From: Shigella phage PSD9 | Sequence record: MZ561532 | DNA: 64,000 bases | Direction: 5' to 3' (one strand) | Part shown: one piece after another, positions 3,280-20,837 of the stretch | Layout of the letters: each line of letters begins with the position of its first letter | How positions within the stretch are numbered: the first letter of the stretch is position 1 | The notes under the pieces: model-generated | The model's input: only the letters and a program-made list of their open reading frames with translations | Told to the model about the DNA's origin: nothing | The model's database searches: none | Program-made: the position numbers and the translations under genes

Positions 3280-3281
3280 AC

Positions 3282-3867: not shown

Positions 3868-4236
3868 TTAGGAAGACCAGCCGGTAAATTTACGTTGTCC
3901 TGAATCCCAGTGAACACCTACGTCAGGAGAATACCTATAATTAAAATCACCGTAGGATTCCGAAATTTCTAAAATATATCTTACAAAATATTCACAAAGC
4001 TCATTAGACCATGAATCAGAATACACCACGAAGTGGAAAGATGATTGGTCCTCATCATCGACATCAATCCATACCCGTTTTAATTTACCTTCCGGCGAAT
4101 CATAAACACCTGAAATATATTCACCTTTAACCGAAAGGCTTCCTTCTTCAAAAGCAGTATTCAAAACAAGCCCTAATTCTCCAGGGCTAGATTCTTCTAC
4201 CCAATCATCATGGGTATTCAATAAAATCTTAATCAT
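3868..4236 (-). CDS. hypothetical protein (122 aa)
   Basis: minus-strand ORF between 56 and the methyltransferase ORFs. Confidence 0.45.
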   Translation of the reverse strand: MIKILLNTHDDWVEESSPGELGLVLNTAFEEGSLSVKGEYISGVYDSPEGKLKRVWIDVDDEDQSSFHFVVYSDSWSNELCEYFVRYILEISESYGDFNYRYSPDVGVHWDSGQRKFTGWSS

Positions 4237-4245
4237 AATATTTCC

Positions 4246-4728
4246 TTAAAAATCAAATATGTCTAATAACGAATTAGTGGTATTAATATGAACTACTGGG
4301 GCTACATAATCATCCATCCATTCGGGATATCTGCGCCCTTCAGATCGGTCATTAGGGTCTAATGTATTTGCATATGCAAAGTTATATGAAATTATATCTC
4401 GATGTTCTTTAGTGTCACCGACAATATTTAAGATACGTTGGCATAAAAAATCATAGTTATCTTTCATATACTCAATACAATACATATCCTTTAAAGCTTG
4501 GGTTGGCGATACTCCTATTTCCAATTTCTTACGGATAACGGCTTCAACAAGATTACCATCTCCTGCTGAAGGTTCAAAGAATGTATTACCGGCCTTAAAG
4601 GATTCTTCACCACAAAGCTTTAAAAGAATTTTTGTACAGTACTCATTAGTGAATACCTCGTCAGTAGATTGTTGACGCTCACGAGATATTTCACCGTTTT
4701 TTCTTGAATTATCAATTGCTAATTTCAT
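4246..4728 (-). CDS. DNA methyltransferase AdoMet-binding module (motifs X and I only)
   Basis: DEVFTNEY ... FFEPSAGDGNL matches motif X + motif I (FxGxG) of N6A/N4C MTases; no (D/N)PP(Y/F); ATG at 4728 with GGGT RBS. Confidence 0.55.
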   Translation of the reverse strand: MKLAIDNSRKNGEISRERQQSTDEVFTNEYCTKILLKLCGEESFKAGNTFFEPSAGDGNLVEAVIRKKLEIGVSPTQALKDMYCIEYMKDNYDFLCQRILNIVGDTKEHRDIISYNFAYANTLDPNDRSEGRRYPEWMDDYVAPVVHINTTNSLLDIFDF

Positions 4729-6211: not shown

Positions 6212-6224
6212 TTTTGTATCTCCA

Positions 6225-6270
6225 GTAGTTGATATGTCTATAGTATCATATCTAGCAGGGATGTAAACTG
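6225..6270 (-). promoter_or_regulatory. early promoter cassette
   Basis: conserved gttgatatgtctatagtatca ... gatgtaaac block (minus-strand GTTTAC -35, TACTAT -10 region). Confidence 0.55.
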
Positions 6271-6275
6271 ATTTT

Positions 6276-6283
6276 TATAAATA
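6276..6283 (+). promoter_or_regulatory. late promoter TATAAATA (plus strand)
   Basis: exact tataaata about 20 nt upstream of the AGGAGG RBS of plus-strand ORF 6305..6505. Confidence 0.4.
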
Positions 6284-6304
6284 ATAATTTAACAGGAGGA
6301 TAAC

Positions 6305-6505
6305 ATGGGCAGTATTTTTTACCAAATCTGGAAATTGGCTGAAAAGAAAGACAAGAAAATGATGTTAGGTTTTCTTGCACTAGATGTGTTCCTTTGGAAT
6401 CTTCTGGTAGTCCCTGTAGCCGCCAGCCAAGGGATAATTTTACCAGCGGTTACAATGGAGCACGTGTTAAGCATAATTGGATTCTTTAGCGGAATTCCTG
6501 CCTAA
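6305..6505 (+). CDS. hypothetical small hydrophobic protein (66 aa)
   Basis: plus-strand ORF in an intergenic gap with strong RBS aggagga and late promoter; hydrophobic segments. Confidence 0.4.
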   Translation: MGSIFYQIWKLAEKKDKKMMLGFLALDVFLWNLLVVPVAASQGIILPAVTMEHVLSIIGFFSGIPA

Positions 6506-7530
6506 ATCTTGGAATATTTTGAAAGTCTCATTTTTGCCATTAAACCTTGGGCTATATTAGCTTTCATATATGCCAGTACATCATTTATATCAGCTTTATC
6601 TTTCATAATCATATCATTTATATCTTTAGAAGGCCATGGAGCCTTGTCCCAGAATAGAACCCTTTCGCCAGCATCAACTAATCGTTGCATACGCTTAATT
6701 GTGTCAGGATGGCGGGGTTCATTGTCCATTACCCAGGCACGAGTTTCTTTACACGGAACCATAGCCAAGTCCAACGACCCGCCAGTAATTGCTATTGCAT
6801 TCGGTACGAATAATGAATCGATAGGACCTTCCATTACCCACACCAACTGACGTTCGTCGACAGTATCCATTCCATATATTTTTGTAGCTTGGTCATGAGC
6901 TTTTATTGTAATATATTTTTGTGGAGCATCTTTACGTAAGGCTCGACCCTGAAAACTTTCAATTTGTTTATTCTTATTGAAAATTGGAATAACCAAACGA
7001 GGCTCAGGCATTTCTTTAGAATAGGTCCCTGGATTGACAGAGTTCACCAATGCCGGCCATTCTTTAGTAAACCATAAGCGATTCCATTTGTTTTCAGGAA
7101 TGCAACGTAGTGTTACATATTTGATAATAGGATGGTCCTTTGGCATTCTATCCAGACGTTCACAGAAATTAAGCTTTTCGATGACAGGCATCTTGGCTTT
7201 AATCTTTTCTGATATCTCCACCTTAGGTGCAGCTTGTCTCCCGAACGATTGCTCTTTATGTTTCTCAAGAATATATTCTCGATATAAATCAGGCTCATAT
7301 TCGTATAGATACTTCTTAATTCCTGCTGAATAGTCACAGTTAAAACAGTGCAGCATTACGGAGCCGTCATTGGCCGGATAGGCCCAAAAACGAGCTTTGT
7401 TCTCATCTTTTAGGGAGTCGCCACATACACGACAACGACAGTTTAATTTAAAATCACTACCAGTTACTTGTCTGAATTTAGGTTGATAATTCAAGGCACG
7501 TACAGCAAATTCTCTATCGACATATGACAT
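6502..7530 (-). CDS. 61: DNA primase gp61
   Basis: 342 aa as in T4 gp61; N-terminal Cys-rich zinc-binding region (CRCRVCGD ... CFNC); synteny next to 41. Confidence 0.85.
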   Translation of the reverse strand: MSYVDREFAVRALNYQPKFRQVTGSDFKLNCRCRVCGDSLKDENKARFWAYPANDGSVMLHCFNCDYSAGIKKYLYEYEPDLYREYILEKHKEQSFGRQAAPKVEISEKIKAKMPVIEKLNFCERLDRMPKDHPIIKYVTLRCIPENKWNRLWFTKEWPALVNSVNPGTYSKEMPEPRLVIPIFNKNKQIESFQGRALRKDAPQKYITIKAHDQATKIYGMDTVDERQLVWVMEGPIDSLFVPNAIAITGGSLDLAMVPCKETRAWVMDNEPRHPDTIKRMQRLVDAGERVLFWDKAPWPSKDINDMIMKDKADINDVLAYMKANIAQGLMAKMRLSKYSKI

Positions 7531-7568
7531 TATTTTTCCTTGGGCTCTAAATTAATAGAGCCATTATA

Positions 7569-7730
7569 TCATTCGTTTTCGGATTTTTCTTTACGCTTTT
7601 TAGATGGGATTTGTTCAGGCCCTTTGTTGACGACCGCGCCTGAGGTAGTTCCGGAGGCAATATTAGATGGGTTACCACCTGCATCGCCTGCGACCATATC
7701 TTCGTTCATAACTTCTTTAAAAGATTTCAT
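7569..7730 (-). CDS. hypothetical small protein (53 aa)
   Basis: unlisted ORF (MKSFKEVMNEDM ...) with AGGAG RBS in the gap after gene 61. Confidence 0.3.
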   Translation of the reverse strand: MKSFKEVMNEDMVAGDAGGNPSNIASGTTSGAVVNKGPEQIPSKKRKEKSENE

Positions 7731-7746
7731 AGGCTCCTGGCCTTAT

Positions 7747-7956
7747 TTATATTACGAAAATAGCTTTATCACCATTCGCATCAGTGACTTCATAGGTATC
7801 TTCATGATACAGTGGGATAATCCAAGTCACACCATCACCGGCAATAATATGGATAGCTTCTTGGTCCTTTGATACGATTTCATACTCTTCGAATAATTCG
7901 AATACAGAAATCTTAGAGCCCGTACACATTGCACTCATATTGTTCCCTTCTCTCAA
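7747..7956 (-). CDS. hypothetical protein (69 aa)
   Basis: minus-strand ORF. Confidence 0.4.
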   Translation of the reverse strand: MREGNNMSAMCTGSKISVFELFEEYEIVSKDQEAIHIIAGDGVTWIIPLYHEDTYEVTDANGDKAIFVI

Positions 7957-8134
7957 TCAGTTGGCGATGGGCCTTTTTAAGTTTACGAAGCTGGCGCTTA
8001 GTTGGCCGTGCAACATAAGCTTGAGTAGTTACTCGACCAAAAACACCGTACTTAGGTGAAGGAGAATCGATAAAGACTTCCCACTGACAAGAGTAACTAT
8101 ACACCGCTTTAGAGAATTGAGTTAAGACAAACAT
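7913..8134 (-). CDS. hypothetical protein (73 aa)
   Basis: minus-strand ORF, basic. Confidence 0.4.
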   Translation of the reverse strand: MFVLTQFSKAVYSYSCQWEVFIDSPSPKYGVFGRVTTQAYVARPTKRQLRKLKKAHRQLIERREQYECNVYGL

Positions 8135-8135
8135 A

Positions 8136-8576
8136 TTAACCTCGATTCATAAAGGCATTAAAAATCTGGTCATCTATTGAATAAACCGGAGCTTCCAGAA
8201 TTTTCAACAGACTGTTTTTGATATACTTGCTAGGGATGTCCATATTAACGCGGTCGTTCAATTCGTTGTCTGGGAGGATGTCTTTAAATTCGAATCCATC
8301 AAACTCAACCTTGTCAGGAATACCTTCAGCGAAAAAATAAACCAATTGGTGCATTGTATTGCACGAAAATAATTTAGACCTCACCGCGATAAGTTCTTGC
8401 CAATGGTTTAATTCTCTGTTAAGAAGTTTATGAGCCATTGTAATTCGATCATCGCTATCAACAAGAAAATAACCCAGGTATTGGTGGTCGTCGCTCCAAA
8501 ACATCCTGTATGCTTGTGCATTTGGATTTTTACAACGAAGTTTTTTGATAACTAAATTTCTGTTAATCTTATTCAC
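8136..8576 (-). CDS. hypothetical protein (146 aa)
   Basis: minus-strand ORF. Confidence 0.45.
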   Translation of the reverse strand: MNKINRNLVIKKLRCKNPNAQAYRMFWSDDHQYLGYFLVDSDDRITMAHKLLNRELNHWQELIAVRSKLFSCNTMHQLVYFFAEGIPDKVEFDGFEFKDILPDNELNDRVNMDIPSKYIKNSLLKILEAPVYSIDDQIFNAFMNRG

Positions 8577-8862
8577 CTGTCACCTCTTTAACGATATTTT
8601 TGTTATCGAAATTGGCATCACAATACAAATTCCAGTTATATTGCATAACACCACCTGAAGCTAATTGGTCTGACACTTCTTTAGCCATGTCAGGACGGTC
8701 GCGTTTAGTGATGTTCATGATATCAGCATAAATCTGATGCTCAACCGCTTCTTGATCGGCAGTCATAGACCATTCACAAAGGTCTTTATCCAATCCAGCC
8801 GTAACTGGAGCCGTGCCACATGACGCTACTGTAAGGATTGCTGCGATTAATAACTTTTTCAT
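8569..8862 (-). CDS. putative lipoprotein (97 aa)
   Basis: signal peptide with lipobox (MKKLLIAAILTVASC); start adjusted to the ATG preceded by GAGGAGAA RBS. Confidence 0.5.
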   Translation of the reverse strand: MKKLLIAAILTVASCGTAPVTAGLDKDLCEWSMTADQEAVEHQIYADIMNITKRDRPDMAKEVSDQLASGGVMQYNWNLYCDANFDNKNIVKEVTGE

Positions 8863-8874
8863 AATGTTCTCCTC

Positions 8875-8920
8875 GGTAGTTGATAGGTCCATAGTATCAC
8901 TACCATAGACCGTTGTAAAC
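8875..8920 (-). promoter_or_regulatory. early promoter cassette
   Basis: gttgataggtccatagtatca ... ttgtaaac. Confidence 0.55.
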
Positions 8921-8921
8921 T

Positions 8922-9161
8922 TTATTTTAATGAATCTTCCAAAGAAATTTTACGGAATTTACGTTTTGTCTGACGAATCTGACGCTTAGTGGGCTTCACA
9001 GGAAATTCGAAGAACTCTACGTATTCTTGTTCATAATCGTTGTGGCCCACTGAAAGAACTAGTTCCCAGTTGTTTACGGTACGTTGGATAAACATATTAT
9101 GCTTACCGAAAGATTTATTCCAAAAAGAGCTAGGAGTTGGTTTCATTAGTACGATATTCAT
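8922..9161 (-). CDS. hypothetical protein (79 aa)
   Basis: minus-strand ORF, basic C-terminus. Confidence 0.4.
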   Translation of the reverse strand: MNIVLMKPTPSSFWNKSFGKHNMFIQRTVNNWELVLSVGHNDYEQEYVEFFEFPVKPTKRQIRQTKRKFRKISLEDSLK

Positions 9162-9302
9162 TTATTCCTCGCCTTCATGTTTATGAGCAATTTCTTCGAA
9201 TTCGCTGTCACAGTCTAAACAGGTTGCGTTGTCCCAAGCATCAAATACCGCCTGGTCTTCACAGACCGAACAACCACATACTACACATTCAAATTCTTCC
9301 AT
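9162..9302 (-). CDS. hypothetical zinc-ribbon protein (about 46 aa)
   Basis: unlisted ORF MEEFECVVCGCSVCED ... CLDCDSEF with two CxxC pairs; hand-translated. Confidence 0.3.
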   Translation of the reverse strand: MEEFECVVCGCSVCEDQAVFDAWDNATCLDCDSEFEEIAHKHEGEE

Positions 9303-9497
9303 TTAGATTTCCTCAATGCGAGCATCATGTTCATAAACTTCTACGTCGTCGACATAGGCCTTGACTAGAATACTATTGACTTCAGCGAATTGGGTAGCCA
9401 CCCACACAATATCGTTTTCACGCACTGAAGCTTCTTTGGTAGCGGTATCACCGTTGGCGAAATGGCCGACAAATTTTACTTTAATTGATTCAGACAT
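9303..9497 (-). CDS. hypothetical protein (64 aa)
   Basis: minus-strand ORF. Confidence 0.4.
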   Translation of the reverse strand: MSESIKVKFVGHFANGDTATKEASVRENDIVWVATQFAEVNSILVKAYVDDVEVYEHDARIEEI

Positions 9498-9815
9498 TTA
9501 GATTTCCTCACAGAAGGCCCATTCAGCATGATAAACCGTAGCGCCTTTAGTATCATTTAAACAAACCACATCCACCGGAGCAATTACACGATAAAGACGA
9601 GGTTCTCCTCCCACTGAACGAGCTGCACGTCCAGCATAAATCTTAGCCAAACCGATATCTTCAGTAAAGAACACACGATTTAGGTTTTTCTTACGACCGG
9701 TTTCAGACAGAACTCCTGTTTCCTCAGGAGGACAAAGCATATTACCGATATTAGCGACACTACAACTTCCATGGTAATACACTTTATATTCTGCTTTACA
9801 GTCGATGGTTTTCAT
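9498..9815 (-). CDS. hypothetical protein (105 aa)
   Basis: minus-strand ORF; start adjusted to MKTIDCK after RBS. Confidence 0.45.
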   Translation of the reverse strand: MKTIDCKAEYKVYYHGSCSVANIGNMLCPPEETGVLSETGRKKNLNRVFFTEDIGLAKIYAGRAARSVGGEPRLYRVIAPVDVVCLNDTKGATVYHAEWAFCEEI

Positions 9816-9827
9816 TTTGTTCTCCAA

Positions 9828-9868
9828 GTTGATAGGTCTATAGTATCACGCCTACAGGAGATGTAAAC
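9828..9868 (-). promoter_or_regulatory. early promoter cassette
   Basis: gttgataggtctatagtatca ... gatgtaaac. Confidence 0.6.
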
Positions 9869-9878
9869 CCTTAAAAAC

Positions 9879-9900
9879 AAAAAAGGAGCCGAAGCTCCTT
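9879..9900 (-). terminator. intrinsic terminator hairpin
   Basis: ggagc-cgaa-gctcc stem plus T-run on the minus strand, at the 3' end of gene 41. Confidence 0.6.
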
Positions 9901-11338
9901 AAAATTTGATAGATGCTGCTAAATCGTCCAAATCACTTCTATTAACACGCGTCTGTCGATTGACCTCGGCCTGGCGATTCATCTCACCTGTAGCCTCACG
10001 AACAGTGTTCACTGGGCCTGGGTTGGAATCATCTTCAACTTCGTACCAACGTTGATTTCCTTTCTTAACGCCAATCTTAAATTTGTTGTAGTAGCTCTTA
10101 TCGCCATAACGAGATTTAAGCTGCTTAACCATCTGCATACCCATCTGAGCGAACTCTTCTGTCTCGACCACACCCAACATGAAGTCTGCAGTATGTGCAA
10201 TACCAAAGGATTCAGCAATATCGGCCATATCGATTTCGGCTGCAACGTTCGCACCACGAGTAGTCTGGGCTGCAGTCCACAACAGTAATTTCTTCTCTAC
10301 TGCAAGTCCACGTAGTTCTTCAGCAACCATCTTAATCAATCCGTAACTGTTTTCAGAGAAAACTTTCGTACGAGACGATGCACAGATAGCCAAGTAGTCA
10401 ACGATAACGACCTGTGGGACAAAGTTTTGTTTGAGCTTGTATTCGTTTAATAATGCACGGAATGTATCGGCATTAGCACCGCCAGTAGGATACTGTTTAA
10501 TCTTTAAACGACCTAAAGTAGCAGTTGAACGCCATTTATCCATCTTAGCTTTATATTCAGGCCACGAGACGTGACCATCATCGATATCATCCAGCGACAC
10601 GTCCAGAAGGTTGGCATCGATACGCTTAGCACATACTTCCTCTGCCATCTCCATGGAGATATAAAGAACATCGTAACCAGATTGAAGGTAATCAGCAGCC
10701 AATGAACAAAGACCAAGAGACTTACCTACGTTTGTTCCTGCCAACAATACGTTTTCAGTACCAAACTCAGCACCACCCTTGGTAATCTTATTCAGAATAT
10801 TAAGACGGAATGGAACCTTACGTGCTTTATCAGAATAACTTTTGAAACGTTCTTCATAGTCATCCATCCAGTCATGACCTAATTCAGAATCGAAACAAAT
10901 CGATAATGCATCACGCATGATATCCGGAATAGCACCAATACCTGGAAGTTTTCTATTTTGTTGCTCAACCGGAAGGTCGGCATTAGTTTGGATTTCAATG
11001 ATTTTTGAAGTTGCATTATACATCGCTGCTTTCTGAACGTATTTCTCCGTCTCTTTAACCAACCATTCTTGGTCTTCAGGTCCGGCATTCAGCGAACTTA
11101 AAAGCTCTTTAGCGCCTTGGTGTTCAACTTCTGAAAGCGTACTGTTATCTAATGCAATGCTCAATGCGTTCTTAGAAGGCACTGCATTATATTCATTGAC
11201 ATGTTTTTTAATTTCTTTGAAAAGGGTCTTTGCAGGACCCTGGTCAAAATAAGAATCATTCATATAAGGCCAGACCTTAGTGAAATAATCACTATTGCCT
11301 AGCAGTTGAGCCAAAATAGTTTCTACCACTTCCACCAC
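9899..11338 (-). CDS. 41: replicative DNA helicase gp41 (DnaB-like)
   Basis: Walker A GTNVGKS, DnaB-like C-terminal domain; synteny 61-41-40-uvsX. Confidence 0.9.
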   Translation of the reverse strand: MVEVVETILAQLLGNSDYFTKVWPYMNDSYFDQGPAKTLFKEIKKHVNEYNAVPSKNALSIALDNSTLSEVEHQGAKELLSSLNAGPEDQEWLVKETEKYVQKAAMYNATSKIIEIQTNADLPVEQQNRKLPGIGAIPDIMRDALSICFDSELGHDWMDDYEERFKSYSDKARKVPFRLNILNKITKGGAEFGTENVLLAGTNVGKSLGLCSLAADYLQSGYDVLYISMEMAEEVCAKRIDANLLDVSLDDIDDGHVSWPEYKAKMDKWRSTATLGRLKIKQYPTGGANADTFRALLNEYKLKQNFVPQVVIVDYLAICASSRTKVFSENSYGLIKMVAEELRGLAVEKKLLLWTAAQTTRGANVAAEIDMADIAESFGIAHTADFMLGVVETEEFAQMGMQMVKQLKSRYGDKSYYNKFKIGVKKGNQRWYEVEDDSNPGPVNTVREATGEMNRQAEVNRQTRVNRSDLDDLAASIKF

Positions 11339-11652
11339 CTCTTAGATTTAATTTTATCCAGTTCTTCTTGTATTTGCATTGTAACACATTTTTCTACATG
11401 AAGCGCCAGCTCTTCTTTTCGGTCTTCGGAAGGTGTTCCGAAATCAACCGACACTTTTCCATCTTTCTCAATAACAATATTCATCACATAAACGATGTGA
11501 GCAGTGCCATCGGGTAAAGTAAGCATAATTTCCTGCTTAACCGATCCCATTGACTTACGGATTATATCTAATGATTTCTCATAATAACGAGGGTCACTAG
11601 GACCCTCTTCGGTATCTTTAACGAAATTATCTAAATCAGATAAATCAGTCAT
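11323..11652 (-). CDS. 40: gp40-like protein (head vertex assembly chaperone in T4)
   Basis: 109 aa ORF exactly between 41 and uvsX as in T4; positional call only. Confidence 0.5.
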   Translation of the reverse strand: MTDLSDLDNFVKDTEEGPSDPRYYEKSLDIIRKSMGSVKQEIMLTLPDGTAHIVYVMNIVIEKDGKVSVDFGTPSEDRKEELALHVEKCVTMQIQEELDKIKSKRWWKW

Positions 11653-12817
11653 CTAAATCCATCTCTTCCAAATCGTTTTCGATATCAGCGGCGCTTTGGG
11701 CATTACCACCTAATTTAACAGCAACGTTCTTAGAGACACGAGAGTTAATAAGGTCGTTCACTGCATCGTCAACTTCTTTAATAGAATTAATTGCACCGAG
11801 CTTATACTTATTCTCGATTGCTTCACGGAACGGGGCATGTTTAAACAGCGGTCCCCAGAACTCGACACAATCGGTAGCTTTAGCACGCCATGCTTTTTCT
11901 TCTTGAACCATTTCGCCTGTGGTTTCGTCAAGGAATGCACGATTATACCAGCCAGCTTTAGGTTTCACGACAAAGCCAATATCAGTAGCCATTTCAAGCA
12001 ATCCACTGAATGGGTCGATACCACCTTCGAAGTTCACTGTAATCGGGAACGTTGATTTCTCTTTAACCGTACGAGATTTCTCGGCCTTCAGTGTGAAGTC
12101 ATAACCAGTGAGCTCAGTACCATCTTTAACCTGACGTTTAGAGATAAAGAACACGGTAGAAGCAGAGTACAGAATACCAGTACCACCACCCATAATCTCT
12201 TTAGGGTACATTCCACCAATTTCCATAGCCGTGTGGTTAATTGCTACACAAGGGATATCTTTGATAGTCAGATAAGGTGTTACGATACGGAACAGAGATT
12301 TCAGTGACTTAGCACGGGTCATATCACCTACAACTTTCTCGTTCAAAGCATCTTCGGTTTCTTTCTTAGAAGCAGTGTTACCAATGGAGTCGATAAAGAT
12401 AATAACCTTTTCGCCACGAGTAATTTCTTCTAACTGGTTGGTCATATCAACTTTAAGCTGTTCGACTGACTGGATTGGTGTATGAACCACACGTTCCAAA
12501 TCAACACCCATCGAACGGAAATAAGATTCTGAAGCACCAAACTCAGAGTCATAGAACAAACAAATTGCGTCTGGATATTTCTTCATATATGCCGCAACCA
12601 TGGTAAGTCCAAACAACGTTTTAAAGTGTTTAGATGGAGCAGCAAAGATTGTCAAACCTGATTGTAAGCCTGCATTCAACGCACCGCCTAATGCAATATT
12701 CAGCATAGGGATACGAGTAGGAACTTCGTCACGACCATTAAACAATTTAGATTTGGTCAGGTCGGCGGTCATTTTAGAAGTAGAAGCTTTAATCAAACGG
12801 GATTTTAAATCAGACAT
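11645..12817 (-). CDS. uvsX: UvsX recombinase (RecA-like)
   Basis: near-colinear match to T4 UvsX (MSDLKSRLIKASTSK ... FIDSIGNTASKKETEDALNEKVVGDMTRAK ...). Confidence 0.95.
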   Translation of the reverse strand: MSDLKSRLIKASTSKMTADLTKSKLFNGRDEVPTRIPMLNIALGGALNAGLQSGLTIFAAPSKHFKTLFGLTMVAAYMKKYPDAICLFYDSEFGASESYFRSMGVDLERVVHTPIQSVEQLKVDMTNQLEEITRGEKVIIFIDSIGNTASKKETEDALNEKVVGDMTRAKSLKSLFRIVTPYLTIKDIPCVAINHTAMEIGGMYPKEIMGGGTGILYSASTVFFISKRQVKDGTELTGYDFTLKAEKSRTVKEKSTFPITVNFEGGIDPFSGLLEMATDIGFVVKPKAGWYNRAFLDETTGEMVQEEKAWRAKATDCVEFWGPLFKHAPFREAIENKYKLGAINSIKEVDDAVNDLINSRVSKNVAVKLGGNAQSAADIENDLEEMDLDD

Positions 12818-12894
12818 TATATTTTTCCATAGGCATCATTATATTTTACTCACGTTTTAAGATAGGGTAATTATATCACTTCACATTTACAGCG

Positions 12895-13788
12895 TTAAAG
12901 GACCACGTCCTCATAACTTGGCATTTCGTGCTCAGAATGGATGTGGGCACCGAAATAAATGAATTCAGCCAGACCAGGATGAAATACTAAACTGGGATTC
13001 TCATGATAAATGATATGAGGTCTTGATTTCAGAATCTGATAATATTCAACCTTACTCGGTTTGAATTTAATAATCTCTACATCAGGACGATAGTCTTCAC
13101 GCTTAAATGAATCATTCGGATCGGTGATATAAAGGCGAGAACCTTCAGCCGCAGCTTGGTCTACAACTCTTTCGAATTGATAACATTTATCAGAGATACG
13201 GAATGGATGGAAAATACCATCAATTTTAATAGGCGCTAGACCTTCAGAGTAACGCTCAATTACTGCGGGATTAATTACCTTTTGGTCTACAAAAATCTTA
13301 TCAGAGGACGCACCTCGTGACACCAGGACGTCTTTCTGACATTGATTCAAGACTGTAGTATAAATCGAACGTTCAACTGAACCCACGTCGGTATCAATAA
13401 ACTCATCGATGTAATAACGAGGAACTTCAGGGTCCATTGTAATGTTAAAGTTGAATTGTACGGTATGAGCACCATCATAACCTGTGATATCGGTTACCAA
13501 TCCTGAGCAGTCATAGTATTCGATTAACGAATCAACAACGAACTCATTTTCAGACCAAAAATGTTTACGAGTTTCATAAGCATTTTCTTTATACCAAAGA
13601 GGTACAAAATTCAGTTCAGGAAATAATTCAATGCATTCTTTGATATCGCTCGAATTTCTAGGATAAGCCAGATAATCACCTGGGCAAGCACGGTTTAAAT
13701 GGAGTTGAAAATTACCGTCCTTAAGGACGGCATATTCACCTGTTTCGTAACTACGCATACTGAAAATAGGAACGATAAACAAACTCAT
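12895..13788 (-). CDS. hypothetical protein at the beta-glucosyltransferase locus (297 aa)
   Basis: occupies the T4 beta-gt position between uvsX and 42 but has no similarity I recognise to T4 beta-gt. Confidence 0.5.
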   Translation of the reverse strand: MSLFIVPIFSMRSYETGEYAVLKDGNFQLHLNRACPGDYLAYPRNSSDIKECIELFPELNFVPLWYKENAYETRKHFWSENEFVVDSLIEYYDCSGLVTDITGYDGAHTVQFNFNITMDPEVPRYYIDEFIDTDVGSVERSIYTTVLNQCQKDVLVSRGASSDKIFVDQKVINPAVIERYSEGLAPIKIDGIFHPFRISDKCYQFERVVDQAAAEGSRLYITDPNDSFKREDYRPDVEIIKFKPSKVEYYQILKSRPHIIYHENPSLVFHPGLAEFIYFGAHIHSEHEMPSYEDVVL

Positions 13789-14483
13789 TTCAGGAATCCT
13801 CGAACGTAGTCAAAATCACGTTCAAATACGTGTGCACTAACCATAGTATGGGAATACGTACCCAGACCAACACCACACTGTTCAGCAATAAAGGCCATCA
13901 GTTTACCCTGCAGATAGAAATCCAGCTGCATAACAATAGCACAGTTCTGTGAACGCATATGGGTATGTGCATAAAGACGTCCATCACGAATATAATATGT
14001 CACTGAATCAGTACATGGATATTCTAAGGATTCGTCAGAATCAAGGAGGGCTTGGTCTTGTTCTTGGAGAATTTGGAACACAACTCGTCTTGAGTTAGGC
14101 TTCTCTTTAAGCTCTTTAAGTAAGGCTGGGAGTTGGGCCACAATTCTAGGTCCATAGAAAGTGTTGAAGTTTGCAGGCAATACGTCACTTTTCGGCTTAT
14201 CAATGAACTTAGCAACATTAGGGTATTCCTTAAATGCTTCGGCGGCGTCAGTACCACCAGAAATCATAAACTTCCAGAAAGATTCGGCATAATCATAGCT
14301 GATACGATTAATACGAGGGTCGGTGAATTTATAGGTGCTTGCATCCAGTACTTCTACCGAAGCAGAACCAATTTCATAACAACGGCCGATACGAGAATCA
14401 ACTGCAAACTGTGGAGCTTCCAGGATTTCTTCGTTCATTTGCTTAAACGCGTTTTCAAAACTAACAGCGGTAATGTGTTTCAT
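13785..14483 (-). CDS. 42: dCMP hydroxymethylase gp42 (ThyA fold)
   Basis: thymidylate-synthase-family C-terminal region (PCTDSVTYY ... H.R. ... MQLDFYL); T4 position. Confidence 0.8.
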   Translation of the reverse strand: MKHITAVSFENAFKQMNEEILEAPQFAVDSRIGRCYEIGSASVEVLDASTYKFTDPRINRISYDYAESFWKFMISGGTDAAEAFKEYPNVAKFIDKPKSDVLPANFNTFYGPRIVAQLPALLKELKEKPNSRRVVFQILQEQDQALLDSDESLEYPCTDSVTYYIRDGRLYAHTHMRSQNCAIVMQLDFYLQGKLMAFIAEQCGVGLGTYSHTMVSAHVFERDFDYVRGFLK

Positions 14484-15016
14484 TTATTCACCTTATTTTC
14501 AATATATTCATTCAGACGTTTTAATTCTACCATATCGACGTTAAGCAAGTTATTATGGCCGTCGTGATTTAAGATTTTAAACACGTTTTCAAAACATGTT
14601 TCGTATTGGCGGATAGTTAGGTTGAACTCATCTTTGGTTAATTTAATAAGGTCATCTTCAAAGTCTTTATCCAGTGGATTACGGGTTAAAATAACCTCAA
14701 TAATATTGAATTCAGATTTAAACCTTTTCCAATCTTCCAGTTCTACATAAGGGTCCATTTCACCGCGAAGGAATCCCGAGTAAACAATATTACTTGGATA
14801 ACCACGGTCAAGGATGTAAACGAAATTAGGGTCTAAAAACTTATACAACGTCTCGACTAAAGCCTTGTCATTATCGGTCCCTAATGAAATGCATTTGCCA
14901 TTAATCTTTTTAGGGAAATCAATAAGACGATATTTCTTATCAGATAAAAGTGATTCAATTAAAGTAGACTTCCCGGAATTATCCGGGCCGTCGATAACAA
15001 TGATTTTTGGTTTCAC
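14480..15016 (-). CDS. P-loop nucleoside/nucleotide-type kinase (178 aa)
   Basis: Walker A IVIDGPDNSGKST at the N-terminus, typical of small NMP/dNK-type kinases. Confidence 0.6.
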   Translation of the reverse strand: MKPKIIVIDGPDNSGKSTLIESLLSDKKYRLIDFPKKINGKCISLGTDNDKALVETLYKFLDPNFVYILDRGYPSNIVYSGFLRGEMDPYVELEDWKRFKSEFNIIEVILTRNPLDKDFEDDLIKLTKDEFNLTIRQYETCFENVFKILNHDGHNNLLNVDMVELKRLNEYIENKVNK

Positions 15017-15387
15017 GGATGATATGCCTTATAGGTTTCAAGAGTTCCTTCACGAACCATTTCTTTAAAGTGGTCAGGACGGATTGCTCGGTCATCGATG
15101 ATAAAAGTATAACTCGGCTTATGTGTAAGCAGATTGTGATATTTCAATCCAATCTTTTCAAGGTTCTTAACTAATGCAGGAACTACTTCAACCAAGATTC
15201 GACCCGGGCCGCATGAAGTCATACCACGGGCAGTGAACAAGGTAATCTCGTACCCTTCATCATAAAGCTTATTAATCATGGACACCATTTCGGTGTCCGG
15301 TTTAAAGTTTTCGTAATCACGGTCATCTTGCCAGTGAGTAATGGTATTATCGATATCAAAACACAGATGCATTAAATTTTCTTCCAT
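15013..15387 (-). CDS. HAD-superfamily phosphatase (124 aa)
   Basis: HAD motif I DIDNTIT, motif II-like TARG, motif IV IIDD. Confidence 0.65.
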   Translation of the reverse strand: MEENLMHLCFDIDNTITHWQDDRDYENFKPDTEMVSMINKLYDEGYEITLFTARGMTSCGPGRILVEVVPALVKNLEKIGLKYHNLLTHKPSYTFIIDDRAIRPDHFKEMVREGTLETYKAYHP

Positions 15388-17045
15388 TGTTTGTGGAGTT
15401 CGGTAGAACCTGTAGGTTTATATTTTACACCAGTTTCCTGGTCAAGCAAAACCCACTTATCAGGACAACGAGTGATAATTTGAGCCGTGATAGGGTCGCG
15501 AACTTCATCAACGAATTCACCTGTGATAAGCTTACGCTTACGAGGATGCCGCTTCAGCAGCACACTCAGTTGATATAGCCCATTGTAATAAGCGCCCAGA
15601 GCTTTCAGAGGGTTATTTTTAAAGTAACCTGCCAATGCCATCCAAATAACGGCAATCCAGAGCTTGTGCTTAAATGTACACATCGGAATATCATCTAAAG
15701 GCATAACCTTTTCAATATCAACGAATACACGAGTTCCGTTACGAGTTAAGCCACCCCATAGAGGGTCAGAGTTAAATTTGTCATAACCATCGATAGAATA
15801 AAGCACCTTAGCTTCATCATAAATCGCAGGGCCTTTAGAACTATTACCAAAATAACCACGTGGGTCGATGATTTTAATATTACCTTCGTCCGACAACATA
15901 ATATTACTGTAGTGCGGGTCGCCATGAATAAGTTGGTACGGTTCTTTATGTTCAGACAGAATTTCTAGTGCATGACGAAGAAGTTTTTCAGGGTCGCCTA
16001 CCTTAAAGTCATTGACATGGGTAATGCCCTGTGGAGCAAAGCCTTCAATCAATCCGGCAATAGAAGCATTACGAATAAGGACCTTGTCCAATACTTCTTT
16101 CTTAACATCAGAATACCATTGCTCATCGGACGGATTATCGATAGTCCCACCGAACGAACGTAATGCACTAATAACCTTATAAACCATTAGGACTTTAGTT
16201 TCTTTAGACATAAACCGGTAGGCATCTGCCATGGTTCGACCAAAGATACGTTCCATTTTAATGAATTCGCCTGGAGCAAAGTCTACAATGCTAGGAACGA
16301 ATTCGGAATCAATAGAATTATACCAATTGATTTCTTTAGATTGGATTTCTTTACCCAATTCGTTAGTTGGTACTTTAATAGCTAGATTCTCGGTGAACTC
16401 TAATTTATTAAATTCACGGTTAATTTCAGAATCTTCATGCGCCTTAGCCAGTTTCAGTTTGTCACCAACATCAACTACAAAGTCTAACTTACGTTCAGTC
16501 AAATGGACCATTGAATCCAGGTTGTCAGCAAGGTCTTCACCATAATTAGAACGGTCGAAACCTGTCCAATTAGCCACCTGATACAAGCCAACTACGCCAC
16601 CACCGGTACCAATTTCACGCAAGTACGGTTCTTCAAATGTAAAACGACAGTCAGTCCCATAGGTATAACAGTAGTCGTTATCCCACTCAACTTTATGACC
16701 TTCAGGAATAATATCACACCAGTTAAACAAGACATTGTGCCCAATGATATCTTCGGCAATGCAATCGATAGCATGAGCCGAACCATTGGCAACATCAACG
16801 TTACGAATAGTGAATTTAGGCTTATCACTATTAATCATGTTAATGGATTTAATATAGCCTTTAACGAGGTCGTTAAATTTGCTGTGAATAACCAGAATAA
16901 TTTCATCTGATTGATTACTATACAAATCATACAAATGTTTTAATACAGTATGTTGTTTGTAGTTAACCAGTACCTTCGGGATTTCGTTGGTAATTGGATA
17001 CAACCGTGAGCCAAGACCCGCGCCTAAAATAACAACCTTTTTCAT
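15372..17045 (-). CDS. bifunctional sugar-1-phosphate nucleotidyltransferase / APH-fold kinase
   Basis: N-term ILGAGLGSRLYPIT (RmlA/GlmU-type NTase signature); C-term LIHGDPHYSNIM ... IIDPRG (choline-kinase/APH catalytic loop); start adjusted to MKKVV. Confidence 0.7.
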   Translation of the reverse strand: MKKVVILGAGLGSRLYPITNEIPKVLVNYKQHTVLKHLYDLYSNQSDEIILVIHSKFNDLVKGYIKSINMINSDKPKFTIRNVDVANGSAHAIDCIAEDIIGHNVLFNWCDIIPEGHKVEWDNDYCYTYGTDCRFTFEEPYLREIGTGGGVVGLYQVANWTGFDRSNYGEDLADNLDSMVHLTERKLDFVVDVGDKLKLAKAHEDSEINREFNKLEFTENLAIKVPTNELGKEIQSKEINWYNSIDSEFVPSIVDFAPGEFIKMERIFGRTMADAYRFMSKETKVLMVYKVISALRSFGGTIDNPSDEQWYSDVKKEVLDKVLIRNASIAGLIEGFAPQGITHVNDFKVGDPEKLLRHALEILSEHKEPYQLIHGDPHYSNIMLSDEGNIKIIDPRGYFGNSSKGPAIYDEAKVLYSIDGYDKFNSDPLWGGLTRNGTRVFVDIEKVMPLDDIPMCTFKHKLWIAVIWMALAGYFKNNPLKALGAYYNGLYQLSVLLKRHPRKRKLITGEFVDEVRDPITAQIITRCPDKWVLLDQETGVKYKPTGSTELHKQWKKI

Positions 17046-17105
17046 TATCTGTTCCTCAAGTGAATGTAGGTACATTATACACTATTTTTAATAAATTGGT
17101 ATTGC

Positions 17106-17606
17106 TTAAATCTTATCTTTACCGATTTCAATACACTGTTCTATTGCCGCCGGTACTTTGGTCTTGAGCTTATCGATTTGTTTCTTATAATCACGAGCTT
17201 TACCGAAGCTCTCGGTTTCGAGCATTTCGTAATAACGAGCCTCGTGGATGGAAATCTGTAGATTGATATGGTTTACGCACATCGCATACAGTTTCTGCTT
17301 TTTGTACAAATCATCTTGACGCTTCATTTCTGCCTGGTGTTTGGCTAGTACCGCTTCACGCTTGGACTCTTGTTCACGTTGGAATTCGATTTCTTGTTGA
17401 GCATATTTTGCACAGTTATTACCGCATTGATTATTAGCTCGGGTGTACACAAGTCCAGAACCTGCACGGAATTTCATTTCGCCATCGAATTGTTTCTGTT
17501 CAGCTGCGATACGAGCTTTACCAACTTCATCGGCCGAAACTGTATCACCATATTGGACCGCGCAACCTGATAGGAGCATACTCATTGCGATAATTAACTT
17601 TTTCAT
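17106..17606 (-). CDS. putative lipoprotein (166 aa)
   Basis: signal peptide with lipobox LLSGC; coiled-coil-rich mature part. Confidence 0.5.
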   Translation of the reverse strand: MKKLIIAMSMLLSGCAVQYGDTVSADEVGKARIAAEQKQFDGEMKFRAGSGLVYTRANNQCGNNCAKYAQQEIEFQREQESKREAVLAKHQAEMKRQDDLYKKQKLYAMCVNHINLQISIHEARYYEMLETESFGKARDYKKQIDKLKTKVPAAIEQCIEIGKDKI

Positions 17607-17747
17607 AATATCCTCAATTAAAACAGTTATACTTAATTTGTGCTATAAGAATAATCCATCCAATGATGAGTGTCGGAATCATTGGCGGAATTGCCACTGC
17701 CCAATAAACGGTAAAGGCAGCCATTATAAGAAATAAAACAATTATTT

Positions 17748-17984
17748 TCATTGTTTAACAATAATGATTTGTGCGTTTGATTTACGTTCAGCGACGATAG
17801 CCCAGATTAAAGCCACTACCCAACCAATCATCGTCCAGCCTAACAGGAGATTAAGGAAGAAAATTCCTACATTACTACGAGTGCCTCGCAGAAGAGCCAG
17901 AATCCATGGTAAAAAGTAACCGATGAACATAATAACCAGAGAACCGAATCCTAAAACACCAGCACTAACGATTAAAGCTTCCAT
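17748..17984 (-). CDS. imm: superinfection immunity protein Imm
   Basis: two-TM protein with the Imm-family pattern YFLPWILA ... NLLLGWTMIGWVVALIWA; T4 position beside 43. Confidence 0.7.
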   Translation of the reverse strand: MEALIVSAGVLGFGSLVIMFIGYFLPWILALLRGTRSNVGIFFLNLLLGWTMIGWVVALIWAIVAERKSNAQIIIVKQ

Positions 17985-17998
17985 TGTAATTTCCTCAT

Positions 17999-18046
17999 GT
18001 AGTTGATAGGAAGGATACTACCACGTTCCTTGTGGTATGTAAACAC
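17999..18046 (-). promoter_or_regulatory. early promoter cassette (variant)
   Basis: gttgataggaaggatactac ... gtatgtaaac immediately 3' of gene 43. Confidence 0.45.
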
Positions 18047-20758
18047 TTAAAAGTCGAACATATCAAATAATGTTGCTTTTTTCTCGTAGTCGATTTTAGC
18101 AGACTCAGTAAAACCGGTCAGAGGTTTGATAAAGGTCTTTTGGAACAGTACGTTGTAGTCCATCCAACGGAGGACTTGGTCACGAATCTGAACCGGAAGT
18201 TCAATACCTGACGGCCATGCCATACAAGCTTCACCAAACGGGTTGCCTTCTTTAAGTGGCAGTACATATACCTTTTCACCATCAACGATACGAGGCATAG
18301 TCAAATCACCTGCAGAAGCACGCATGTAAGCTAAGCAACCTTTGATGTGGTATGGACATTTAGAACCCGGGAATCCACCTTCATTATATTTCTCGATGTT
18401 GTTAGCACTGGATACTGCTGCAATGCTTACATAATCGAGTTCGTTAAATTCCTTATTAAACTGTTTGAAATATTCTTGCAAAGATGCCTCGCCTTCCTGA
18501 AGCATACGACGGATACATTCCTTCAGAGCTTTCTGAACTGCTTTAGGTGTACTTGATTTCTGAGTTTCGAGACCCATGATTTTCAAGTGTGGTTCAGCAT
18601 AACGAGTACCTTCCATGTCCCAAACGTTAAGTGCATAACGTTTCTTGCCTGTCCAGAATCCACCAAGGCCTTTAGAACCAAGTGGAGGACCTGCGATAGC
18701 TTCTCGGTCCATGAACATCAAGTGTTGTTTGTTGTTCATGTATTCGCACATCTCACGGAAGCCTGCATCAATAGCTGGTTCCATACGTTCACGTGCAAAT
18801 TTATCTAAGAAGTCGACCCAGTGGTTAGTATCACGGAATTTATCTTCGCCTACTTTATTGATGATTGCATCTGCCTTAACATAAATGGAGTCAGTATCAC
18901 CGTAGAGCACGAACTTCTGGTTTTCAGTCTTACACACACTATTCAGATATTCGTTAACCTTACGTTCAATCCATTGGAGGGCCATTTGACCAAACAATGT
19001 GATTGCAGTTGCGTTCCTGAGGTCATAGTAACGGAACCATACGTTACCAAGTGCACCATAAAGGGAGTTGATAAGCAACTTACGGTTAATCTGAGCAGTG
19101 TTACCTGCAACTTCAGTGAGCTCGGCTTTCTTCAACATTTCTCTTAAAGAAGGCGCTGACAGTGCTTTAATCTGGGCTTTGATTTCGTCAGAGAAGTCAA
19201 AACGATAATCGATATCCAGTGGACTATCAACTGAGAGATTAGGATTTTCCAATGCTTCTTTAATTAACTCGCCATTACGTTGAGCTGCAAGCATGTAACC
19301 TTTATGTTCTTTACGCTGCAAGAATACCTTTGTGATTTCTGTCGGAATCACACCTTCACGGTCTTTATAATACATCATGCCGTTAGGAGAGCAACTGTAG
19401 GTGTCGCTAGGACGCGGAGCTGTTCCGGCAATATATTCATGTATCGGTGCGTTAGCGAATGTCCCTGCGATGGTCTCTGGGCTTATATTCACTTGTCGAA
19501 TGATACTCGGATACAGAGATGTAAGGTCGAAACTCATTACATATTTGTAAGCGTTAGGAATCGGTTCCTTAACGAAAGCACCAGGATAAGGTTGGACCAC
19601 GTGTGAGCGAGCTTGTGGAATTACCTTGCCTTGTTCTTTAAGGCTATTAAAGATAATAGCGTCCCAAGTCTTAATTGGGCTGAACACCGACTGAATCTGC
19701 ATCTTGGCATAATAACCCATGTCCAAACTCAGAAGAATGAACTGACGCTTCATATCAATCTGCACTACACGATATACGTCGATAATGTTATAGGAAATAT
19801 ATCGTTGGTGGTTCGTCTCACGTAACTTAGAGATTGGACCATCATATTTCAACTTACCCACTTTCAATTCATATTCAGAAACATAATCCAGAGAATAAGA
19901 AGGCTGGTTGGTGAAGCTGAATTTTTTATAGAGGTCGATATAATCCAGAACAGAGATACCGAACAATGTAATGATTTCACGAGCACCGTACATGTTCTCA
20001 ATAACTTTAACACGAGTTTTACGATGTGGGCTTAATCGCTTAGCAGTGTTCTCACCGAACAGATTTTTCAGACGGTTATAAACGTACGGTACGTCAAACG
20101 ACTCAACGTTCCATCCAGTCAAAATCACAGGAGTTTTCTGTTGCCAGAAATTCAAGTACTCAAGCATCATTTCTTCTTCAGAATTAAACGGAAGATAAAC
20201 GATTTTGTCAATGATTTCCTGTGGAACTTCGTCACCGCCTTCGTCTTGGAGTTTCTCAGCGATTTTAATCGACCACTCTTCGACAGTACCATAAGGCGAA
20301 ACTAAAAGGTCGAATACATAGAATTTATCGTCAATCGAGTCGTAGTGGGTAATGGCATCGATAGGATGTTTAGCCTGAGCTGGTTCAGGGAATCCATCAG
20401 GAGATGTTACCTCGATGTCGAAGTTAGCAATACGAATCTTAGAAGAATCATATCTGATTTCTTTACGATAGGTATCAGACAAATAGGCTAATTTATAGTC
20501 GTCCATACCCAGGGCTTCGAGACCCATATCGTCCATACGTTTCATCCATTGGGATGCATCACGCATAGAGTCGAATTCTTTCTTAACACAACCCTTACCA
20601 TAGATATCAATGTATTTTACGGCTTGCTCTGGATTAGCATGCATAAACATTGTAGGCTTGTAAGGAACTTCACGACTACGTTCGTTACCATTTTTATCGA
20701 TGTAACGTTCGAGAATATTATCACCGATTTGTTCGACTGTCAAATAGAATTCTTGCAT
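18047..20758 (-). CDS. 43: DNA polymerase gp43
   Basis: colinear with T4 gp43 over the full length (exo and pol motifs such as YGDTDS); start set to MQEFYL, matching the T4 N-terminus MKEFYI. Confidence 0.97.
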   Translation of the reverse strand: MQEFYLTVEQIGDNILERYIDKNGNERSREVPYKPTMFMHANPEQAVKYIDIYGKGCVKKEFDSMRDASQWMKRMDDMGLEALGMDDYKLAYLSDTYRKEIRYDSSKIRIANFDIEVTSPDGFPEPAQAKHPIDAITHYDSIDDKFYVFDLLVSPYGTVEEWSIKIAEKLQDEGGDEVPQEIIDKIVYLPFNSEEEMMLEYLNFWQQKTPVILTGWNVESFDVPYVYNRLKNLFGENTAKRLSPHRKTRVKVIENMYGAREIITLFGISVLDYIDLYKKFSFTNQPSYSLDYVSEYELKVGKLKYDGPISKLRETNHQRYISYNIIDVYRVVQIDMKRQFILLSLDMGYYAKMQIQSVFSPIKTWDAIIFNSLKEQGKVIPQARSHVVQPYPGAFVKEPIPNAYKYVMSFDLTSLYPSIIRQVNISPETIAGTFANAPIHEYIAGTAPRPSDTYSCSPNGMMYYKDREGVIPTEITKVFLQRKEHKGYMLAAQRNGELIKEALENPNLSVDSPLDIDYRFDFSDEIKAQIKALSAPSLREMLKKAELTEVAGNTAQINRKLLINSLYGALGNVWFRYYDLRNATAITLFGQMALQWIERKVNEYLNSVCKTENQKFVLYGDTDSIYVKADAIINKVGEDKFRDTNHWVDFLDKFARERMEPAIDAGFREMCEYMNNKQHLMFMDREAIAGPPLGSKGLGGFWTGKKRYALNVWDMEGTRYAEPHLKIMGLETQKSSTPKAVQKALKECIRRMLQEGEASLQEYFKQFNKEFNELDYVSIAAVSSANNIEKYNEGGFPGSKCPYHIKGCLAYMRASAGDLTMPRIVDGEKVYVLPLKEGNPFGEACMAWPSGIELPVQIRDQVLRWMDYNVLFQKTFIKPLTGFTESAKIDYEKKATLFDMFDF

Positions 20759-20814
20759 TTCATTTCCTTTATAGACGAGTGATTGTCTTTTGTTTGTTGA
20801 TGAATCATTATACT

Positions 20815-20837
20815 CCAAAAGGGACCGAAGTCCCTTT
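20815..20837 (-). terminator. hairpin (terminator or gene 43 leader structure)
   Basis: gggac-cgaa-gtccc stem followed by T-run on minus strand, between regA operon and gene 43. Confidence 0.5.

Follow-up and report, generated by a model that had tools for sequence, protein, structure and literature searches.

How does a T4-related phage modify its cytosines when it carries a "gene 42" and no glucosyltransferase? Petrov et al. (2010) left this question open for phages of the RB69 and JS98 types. It is raised again by a stretch of 64,000 nucleotides (nt) from Shigella phage PSD9 (record MZ561532; the window means this whole stretch), in which five consecutive genes lie between the genes for DNA polymerase and UvsX. 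They encode a nucleotidyltransferase-kinase fusion, a HAD-family protein, a P-loop kinase, a homolog of ThyA and a protein of 297 amino acids (aa). We found that these genes, which run from 17045 to 12895, very probably constitute a reduced form of the cytosine hydroxylation-arabinosylation pathway of RB69, and that its product would be mono-arabinosyl-5-hydroxycytosine made from host arabinose 5-phosphate. A preliminary description of the locus had suggested a DNA hypermodification system in place of the T4 glucosyltransferases, and had wondered whether it corresponds to the arabinose system of RB69. Homology to the RB69 module supports the former, and the five RB69 counterparts described below answer the latter in the affirmative.

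The window comes from a Dhakavirus. When the region 12800-17700 was compared by megablast with 50,697 phage records, full-length matches were found in Escherichia phage vB_EcoM-E33 (99.4%) and in WG01 (99.1%; Straboviridae, Tevenvirinae, Dhakavirus), and JS98, JS10, Bp7, IME08 and their relatives matched at 93-97%. Lee et al. report that the 5-hydroxycytosine in the DNA of RB69 and of Acinetobacter phage DLP3 bears one, two or three arabinose units, and that an ether bond joins the sugar directly to C5 (PMC13326640). In the Mosigvirus NP, 5-ara-dC and 5-ara-ara-dC were confirmed, and the earlier assignment for RB69 was called wrong (PMC13390438). That assignment, arabinosyl-5-hydroxymethylcytosine (ara-hmC; PMC6024577), was also the one mentioned for RB69-type phages in the preliminary description; both recent studies revise it to arabinosyl-5-hydroxycytosine. 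Lee et al. named the Dhakaviruses among the genera that have a syntenic cluster and are predicted to produce 5-hydroxydeoxycytidine (5hodC; PMC13326640). The system is therefore already known, since the RB69-type pathway was published in 2025-2026 with the Dhakaviruses included by synteny. The residual value of the present locus is its reduced gene set and its divergent enzyme clade.

We searched the proteins of the RB69 region between the polymerase gene and uvsX against the window using tblastn. All five module proteins were homologous to and syntenic with those of RB69, and the E-values, down to 1e-130, were far beyond chance. The fusion (557 aa; 15372-17045, on the minus strand like every gene of interest here) is colinear with its RB69 counterpart, being 44% identical to RB69p053 and 41% identical to RB69p052. 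The HAD protein (124 aa; 15013-15387) is 62% identical to RB69 gp51, and the P-loop kinase (178 aa, GTG start; 14480-15016) is 37% identical to gp45 (E = 4e-31). The ThyA homolog (232 aa; 13785-14483) shares 79% identity over 231 aa with gp48, and the 297-aa protein (12895-13788) is 70% identical to RB69p047 and 63% identical to RB69p046. In RB69, gp46 and gp47 are one gene split by a sequencing error, and gp52 and gp53 are likewise one gene. Judged from sequence, the fusion is the ortholog of RB69 gp52:53, HY126 AfhE and DLP3 gp82, the HAD protein that of RB69 gp51 and HY126 AfhF, the thymidylate-kinase-like (TMK-like) P-loop kinase that of RB69 gp45 and DLP3 gp78, and the 297-aa protein that of RB69 gp46:47, DLP3 gp79 and TH1_063 of phage Thanatos.

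The pathway may proceed as follows. The dCTPase/dUTPase encoded by the accessory gene 56 (3282-3803, minus strand; Pfam dUTPase_2, 2e-6), the positional equivalent of WG01 gp028, which is annotated as 'gp56 dCTPase', would yield deoxycytidine monophosphate (dCMP) and keep the triphosphate dCTP out of the DNA. The ThyA homolog would hydroxylate dCMP at C5 to give 5-hydroxy-dCMP, as its identity to gp48 and a substitution described below suggest. Hydroxylation with flavin and O2 has been shown for RB69 gp48 (PMC13326640) and for the HY126 enzyme. A second accessory, the gene 1 deoxynucleoside monophosphate kinase (62930-63691, minus strand; Pfam DNMK PF21448, 1e-89), together with the host nucleoside diphosphate kinase, would then raise the product to the triphosphate, which the phage polymerase would incorporate in place of dC; the RB69 gene 1 homolog, gp159, phosphorylates 5-hydroxy-dCMP in vitro (PMC13326640).

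On the sugar side, arabinose 5-phosphate would be taken from the host, a source proposed because no isomerase is encoded by the phage itself. In Escherichia coli, KdsD and GutQ supply this compound for the synthesis of 3-deoxy-D-manno-octulosonic acid (Kdo). By orthology to AfhE and AfhF, the C-terminal kinase of the fusion would phosphorylate it at C1 to arabinose 1,5-bisphosphate (Ara-1,5-P2), the HAD phosphatase would strip the 5-phosphate to leave Ara-1-P, and the N-terminal nucleotidyltransferase would form uridine diphosphate (UDP)-arabinofuranose. According to what Lee et al. relay of the work on HY126, a Mosigvirus, AfhE is both a kinase for arabinose 5-phosphate and a pyrophosphorylase for UDP-arabinose, and AfhF is a phosphatase acting on Ara-1,5-P2 (PMC13326640). 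The 297-aa protein would finally put one arabinose on the 5-hydroxyl, giving ether-linked 5-O-arabinosyl-5-hydroxycytosine, and this product would shield the DNA from restriction and from CRISPR (clustered regularly interspaced short palindromic repeats) nucleases. The enzyme logic outlined in the preliminary description was roughly right, but its steps have to be put in another order, and by what is reported for AfhE and AfhF no free sugar is salvaged.

The fusion protein consists of an N-terminal nucleotidyltransferase domain (about 16398-17045), whose GxGxR motif lies in GAGLGSRL (17001-17024), and a C-terminal kinase domain of the APH/choline-kinase fold (about 15372-16406), whose HxD...N motif lies in HGDPHYSN (15903-15926). 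Pfam assigned NTP_transferase (2.5e-8) and APH (9.1e-6) to residues 13-110 and 356-427 of the longest open reading frame (ORF), and the protein matches phrog_4098 over its full length (5e-269). That longest ORF, 15372-17075, begins with an ATG that falls within a TATAAT box. The true start is the ATG at 17045, which is preceded by GAGGAA and gives 557 aa, and the RB69 protein starts at the equivalent MKK. The length of 557 aa had been given correctly before, together with a span whose end at 17075 was 30 nt too far.

The HAD protein (119 aa if Met6 is the start) carries DIDNT, a DxDxT motif, at 15343-15357 (residues 11-15). In the PDB it matched 9IQW with an E-value of 2.8e-53 over residues 3-124 and 1XPJ with 2.8e-12, and it belongs to phrog_1238 (5e-41). 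The P-loop of the kinase, GPDNSGKS, is at 14966-14989; the protein matches phrog_761 'thymidylate kinase' (9e-40), and its Pfam and PDB matches are weak. PDB sequence searches with the 297-aa protein, the kinase and RB69 gp50 returned nothing useful. All ORFs and motifs named in the preliminary description were present when located by coordinates, and the Pfam matches of the fusion support its domain calls. The TMK-like kinase is linked to a transferase and a ThyA homolog in RB69, in the DLP phages and in Rhizobium phage RL38J1, which uses hexoses; it is conceivable that it serves as a dedicated kinase for the glycosylated nucleotide.

The module proteins were also compared across phage genera. 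The fusions form two clades. The first comprises the window, Marfavirus (Klebsiella phage PhiKpNIH-6) and Providencia phage PSTCR6, which are 70-80% identical among themselves (window and PSTCR6, 72%). The second comprises RB69, DLP1 and Thanatos, which share 52-65% among themselves and 40-45% with the first; the window fusion is 44% identical to those of DLP1 and Thanatos over about 560-580 aa. The kinase follows the same pattern, with 76% identity to Marfavirus and 37% to RB69. The HAD protein is more even (84% to Marfavirus, 57-66% elsewhere). For the transferase, the identity to RB69 is 64-70% in the window, 46-48% in DLP1 and 48-53% in Thanatos.

These values bear on the question of which sugar is attached. 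The fusion and kinase of the window are far more divergent from RB69 than the neighbouring core proteins (uvsX 90%, gp43 83%), so that the cassette looks exchanged; no arabinose 5-phosphate isomerase is encoded by the phage; and the example of Rhizobium phage RL38J1 indicates that 5-hydroxycytosine can carry hexoses. It could be argued from this that the 5-hydroxycytosine receives another sugar or that the sugar comes on another nucleotide carrier, and that the cassette of Dhakavirus, Marfavirus and PSTCR6 makes an undescribed 5-O-glycosyl-cytosine. However, the even conservation of the HAD protein across lineages argues for the same bisphosphate substrate, and the window transferase is closer to that of RB69 than are the transferases of phages proven to arabinosylate their DNA. 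Thanatos DNA carries a pentose although its polymerase-uvsX locus, which is all of that genome that was searched, has no isomerase, and the host supply of arabinose 5-phosphate is established knowledge. We consider a different sugar or carrier unlikely. We read the sequence comparison as a cassette that was exchanged or evolves fast and has most likely kept its arabinose specificity.

Two other readings of these comparisons were rejected. The tandem kinase copies of PSTCR6 suggested two paralogous kinase families, but all the kinases are about equally distant from each other (36-46% pairwise, except 76% between the window and Marfavirus). A strict link between loss of the isomerase and the divergent fusion clade does not hold either, since the Thanatos locus is without isomerase and its fusion belongs to the RB69 clade.

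The transfer of the sugar is assigned to the 297-aa protein, which we propose adds the first arabinose to 5-hydroxycytosine. Its gene overlaps that of the ThyA homolog by 4 nt, and the protein matches phrog_3891 (8e-159) and is 52% identical to Thanatos TH1_063. Its structure model shows a compact GT-B fold with two Rossmann-like domains, and the best matches are all nucleotide-sugar-dependent transferases: sucrose-phosphate synthase 6KIH (score 17.9), BshA (17.0), PimA (16.1), the HY126 transferase 9IQZ (14.2) and T4 alpha-glucosyltransferase 1Y6F (13.4). In vitro, TH1_063 has been reported to form UDP-xylose from uridine triphosphate (UTP) and xylose-1-phosphate and did not xylosylate DNA, dCMP or dCTP (PMC12838424), and in the work of Lee et al. 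single transferases were inactive on DNA containing 5-hydroxycytosine (PMC13326640). Lee et al. were unable to decide between the nucleotide and DNA as the acceptor of the first sugar (PMC13326640). It might be supposed, accordingly, that the 297-aa protein forms a UDP-pentose and that another protein, such as the fusion, carries out the transfer. The predicted fold, a canonical two-Rossmann GT-B, is that of a transferase, the fusion already has a bona fide nucleotidyltransferase domain, and there is no other transferase candidate in the genome. In addition, the TH1_063 tests used acceptors without a 5-hydroxyl and the wrong sugar. A UDP-pentose-forming role is thus improbable, more so than a change of sugar, and we retain the 297-aa protein as the putative arabinosyltransferase.

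We also looked for further glycosyltransferases, in the window and in the parts of WG01 beyond it (1-19000 and 72000-169936). The 64-kb window contains no homolog of T4 alpha- or beta-glucosyltransferase, with no tblastn match better than E = 0.019. When the rest of WG01 was searched, tblastn gave no match at E ≤ 0.1. The best E-value by phmmer was 0.08. The interval between gene 47 (26328-27350) and gene 55 (28359-28916) has a single ORF of at least 90 aa, which encodes 103 residues (DUF2654); the alpha-glucosyltransferase noted earlier as missing there is indeed absent. Neither the window nor the remainder of WG01 yielded a second member of the 297-aa family to a hidden Markov model of it, the next best E-value being 0.27. 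A Pfam screen of the other large ORFs of the window for a hidden transferase returned homing endonucleases, nrdC.x-type DUFs and an NTPase only. Mono-arabinosylation alone is predicted because no second transferase is present, as in Thanatos.

Four genes of the RB69 system, gp3, gp55, gp50 and gp49, were found by neither tblastn nor phmmer, whether in the window or in WG01 outside it. RB69 gp55, like DLP3 gp83, is the arabinose 5-phosphate isomerase, a SIS-domain protein; gp3 is a second transferase (GT4), and DLP3 has gp76/77 as its second or third transferases; gp50 belongs to the Peptidase_U32 family (Pfam 7e-11). The site of gp3 in RB69, the slot between rIIA.1 and 39, holds just two ORFs of 107 aa and 53 aa. 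Homologs of gp3 in the phage collection fall into two groups, one at least 95% identical (Mosigvirus) and one below 60% (Acinetobacter phages, Tegunavirus); none lie between, and none come from Salmonella Dhakaviruses. The fusion occurs in about 50 more records named after Escherichia, Enterobacteria or Salmonella than the isomerase does, an excess that agrees with the number of Dhakaviruses.

Gp50 is the most conserved module gene of RB69 in other genera, with 79-86% identity in Marfavirus, PSTCR6 and Thanatos. RlhA, TrhP and UbiU/UbiV, all of the U32 family, hydroxylate their substrates without O2; the product of RlhA is 5-hydroxycytidine in ribosomal RNA. RB69 gp50 could therefore allow 5-hydroxycytosine to be made anaerobically and so complement the ThyA homolog, which depends on O2; we did not find this link in the literature. 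As a separate observation, no ORF of at least 400 aa is present between gene 55 and 53784 (28916-53784), which means that the place of nrdD in T4, between genes 55 and 49, holds no gene of that size. Neither nrdD nor nrdG appears in the annotation of WG01, and no search with an NrdD query was made. If nrdD is truly absent, the Dhakavirus would have neither an anaerobic reductase nor a U32-family gene.

The nature of the base depends on the ThyA homolog (Pfam PF00303 Thymidylat_synt, 4.9e-14), which we aligned with E. coli ThyA, T4 gp42 and RB69 gp48. The catalytic cysteine, Cys157 in YPCT (14010-14021), aligns with Cys146 of E. coli ThyA and is kept, and three positions are changed relative to that enzyme: L143E, N177D and D169N. 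The D169 position is occupied by Asn180 in RSQN (13944-13955). The sequence around it is MRSQN...MQLD in the window, MRSND in T4 gp42, where the Asp is kept, and QRSCD in E. coli. The RS(Q/E)N signature also occurs in RB69, DLP1, Thanatos, Marfavirus and PSTCR6. Lee et al. found D169N to be diagnostic of 5-hydroxy-dCMP synthases and validated it on nine diverse homologs (NAR 2026, PMC13326640); in the same study, RB69 gp48 and DLP3 gp80, with a flavin bound, made 5-hydroxy-dCMP whose oxygen derived from 18O2.

The preliminary description had taken this protein for the gene 42 dCMP hydroxymethylase and had expected hydroxymethylcytosine, to which arabinose or another sugar would then be attached. 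The protein is indeed of the ThyA family, it has the dCMP-specifying N177D as well as L143E, a change common to hydroxymethylases, dCMP hydroxymethylase is the name used in the older literature and in many GenBank records, and the first report on RB69 gave ara-hmC (PMC6024577). However, its identity to T4 gp42 is 25% (tblastn), whereas RB69 gp48, a proven hydroxylase, is 79% identical to it. In the PDB, it matched 9IQU and 9IQC/9IR2 with an E-value of 6e-126, whereas T4 gp42 (1B49) matched with 1.3e-5 and ranked below MilA and many true thymidylate synthases. The two marks of a gp42-type enzyme, Asp at the D169 position and gp42 as the closest relative, are both missing, and the RB69 structure was itself revised by nuclear magnetic resonance (NMR) and mass spectrometry to ether-linked 5-hydroxycytosine. 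We infer that 9IQU, 9IQC/9IR2 and 9IQW are entries from the HY126 study because their accessions are adjacent and 9IQZ is labelled 'phage HY126 glycosyltransferase'. The identity to gp48 and the D169N substitution point to a predicted dCMP 5-hydroxylase (5-hydroxy-dCMP synthase), and a glycosylated hydroxymethylcytosine is very improbable.

Least credible of all is a target other than DNA, such as host Kdo, lipopolysaccharide or capsule precursors: arabinose 5-phosphate is a precursor of Kdo, the HAD homolog in 9IQW bears the name 'capsule biosynthesis protein', and a heptose-pathway label is given to the HAD protein by RefSeq, but the genes are translationally coupled to the predicted cytosine hydroxylase inside the replication gene block, and in RB69, NP, DLP3 and Thanatos the presence of an orthologous module goes together with arabinosylation of the DNA, as seen by liquid chromatography-mass spectrometry or NMR.

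Several points weigh against the proposed pathway. Chemical data on the DNA of a Dhakavirus did not turn up in the literature, and the literature found gives no in vitro sugar transfer for any member of the 297-aa family; the inactivity of single transferases and the UDP-xylose formed by TH1_063 belong here as well. The supply of arabinose 5-phosphate by the host is an assumption. The fusion clade is far from all studied enzymes, and its specificity for sugar and nucleotide is not guaranteed. Finally, the U32-family gene, which is highly conserved in RB69, Marfavirus, PSTCR6 and Thanatos, is missing from the Dhakavirus window and from the rest of WG01.

The T4 gene order is kept around the module. 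On one side, all on the minus strand, lie gene 41 (9899-11338), gene 40 (11323-11652) and uvsX (11645-12817). On the other side are genes for a lipoprotein (17106-17606) and a 45-aa hydrophobic peptide (17617-17754), followed by imm (17748-17984) and the DNA polymerase gene (18047-20818). The four junctions within the five-gene block overlap (ATGA, ATGA, GTGA and 16 nt), and because consecutive genes overlap, the five are considered to be translationally coupled. A leader upstream of the block (17046-17100, minus strand) contains the TATAAT box and the Shine-Dalgarno sequence GAGGAA, as read from the sequence, and is a possible promoter. Our promoter consensus scan of the module region gave 19 sites against 17.8 expected, which is not above chance. 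Since promoter and terminator scans did not exceed the shuffle expectation, the operon structure rests on the overlapping stop and start codons. The lipoprotein (166 aa) has the lipobox LSGC and belongs to phrog_1754. The 45-aa peptide (phrog_3610) is 56% identical to RB69p054, and the start of its gene overlaps the stop of imm. Both are probably envelope- or superinfection-related and outside the DNA modification pathway.

Two other regions of the window were examined. A low-GC segment (3868-6211, minus strand; about 2.4 kb, GC content 0.32) that lies between gene 56 and gene 61, which encodes the primase (6502-7530), had no DNA match in the 50,697 phage records, and its flanks alone matched other Dhakaviruses. 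It has three ORFs. The first (122 aa) has no family, the second (161 aa) belongs to a phage 'DNA methyltransferase' family (phrog_21201, 4e-64), and the third (499 aa) begins with a LEM-3-like GIY-YIG nuclease domain and resembles a homing endonuclease in its C-terminal region. At the protein level the best match, 50% identical, is in Klebsiella phages PKO111 and KpV477, beside a methyltransferase, and MX01 has dam in the same slot. A homing endonuclease of 357 aa, of the SegE-like GIY-YIG type (Pfam PF19835, 5e-34), is encoded at 31981-33054 (minus strand). JS98 and JS10 are listed without such genes in the 2010 review of T4-related genomes.

The question of Petrov et al. has been answered in print: the enzyme hydroxylates cytosine, and UDP-arabinose made by the phage decorates it. 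Database labels do not yet reflect this. The fusion and the 297-aa transferase are both 'hypothetical protein', the ThyA homolog is 'thymidylate synthase' or 'dCMP hydroxymethylase', and RefSeq records such as NC_031928 label the HAD phosphatase 'phosphoheptose isomerase'; the last three names, and 'thymidylate kinase' for the P-loop kinase, are misleading. DNA modification bears on sensitivity to restriction, to type IV enzymes and to CRISPR, and it matters for phage therapy with Dhakaviruses and for cloning and sequencing their DNA. The Dhakavirus version, whose five genes include a single transferase gene and none for an isomerase, may be the most reduced natural form of the pathway. If this is true, it would be a convenient minimal system for reconstitution.

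Among known systems, that of the Mosigviruses RB69 (gp45-gp55 plus gp3) and HY126 (the Afh proteins; Lee et al., NAR 2026; He et al., Nat Chem Biol 2026; Thomas et al., 2018) has all five protein families of the window, likewise in the polymerase-to-uvsX slot, and the accessory genes 56 and 1 of RB69 are also present here. The differences lie in the extent and order of the genes. RB69 has gp55, gp50, the small gp49 and gp3, which the window and the rest of WG01 lack. The kinase gene follows the HAD gene in the window, whereas it adjoins uvsX in RB69. The predicted product is mono-arabinosyl in the window and mono- plus di-arabinosyl in RB69.

Thanatos, from another host and another phage lineage, is similarly equipped. 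Its polymerase-uvsX locus (TH1_060-TH1_065) has one transferase of the first type and no isomerase, and it contains the fusion, the HAD protein, the ThyA homolog (with the RSEN signature) and the kinase. It differs from the window in keeping the U32-family gene (79% to RB69 gp50), and its fusion, which is 55% identical to that of RB69 and 44% to that of the window, is of the RB69/DLP clade. Its DNA carries a single O-linked pentose and its fusion gene is essential (PMC12838424), and Lee et al. describe the phage as mono-arabinosylated (PMC13326640).

The closest relatives of the window cassette are in Marfavirus and PSTCR6, which have the same fusion-HAD-kinase order; neither locus has an isomerase. 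The identities between the window and Marfavirus are 80% for the fusion, 84% for the HAD protein, 76% for the kinase and 86% for the ThyA homolog. Both relatives retain the U32-family gene and a small gp49-like gene, which the window lacks, and PSTCR6 has two tandem TMK-like kinase copies, 46% identical to each other, where the window has one. The DNA polymerase gene of PSTCR6 is split by an insertion. We found no experimental study of either cluster in the literature.

The comparison with T4 is one of contrasts. The modified base is 5-hydroxymethylcytosine in T4 and, as D169N predicts, 5-hydroxycytosine in the window. The T4 enzyme is folate-dependent, whereas the studied homologs of the window hydroxylase use flavin and O2. 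No sequence-level homology exists between the window proteins and T4 alpha- or beta-glucosyltransferase. The sugar donor of T4 is UDP-glucose of the host, whereas that of the window must be made by phage enzymes.

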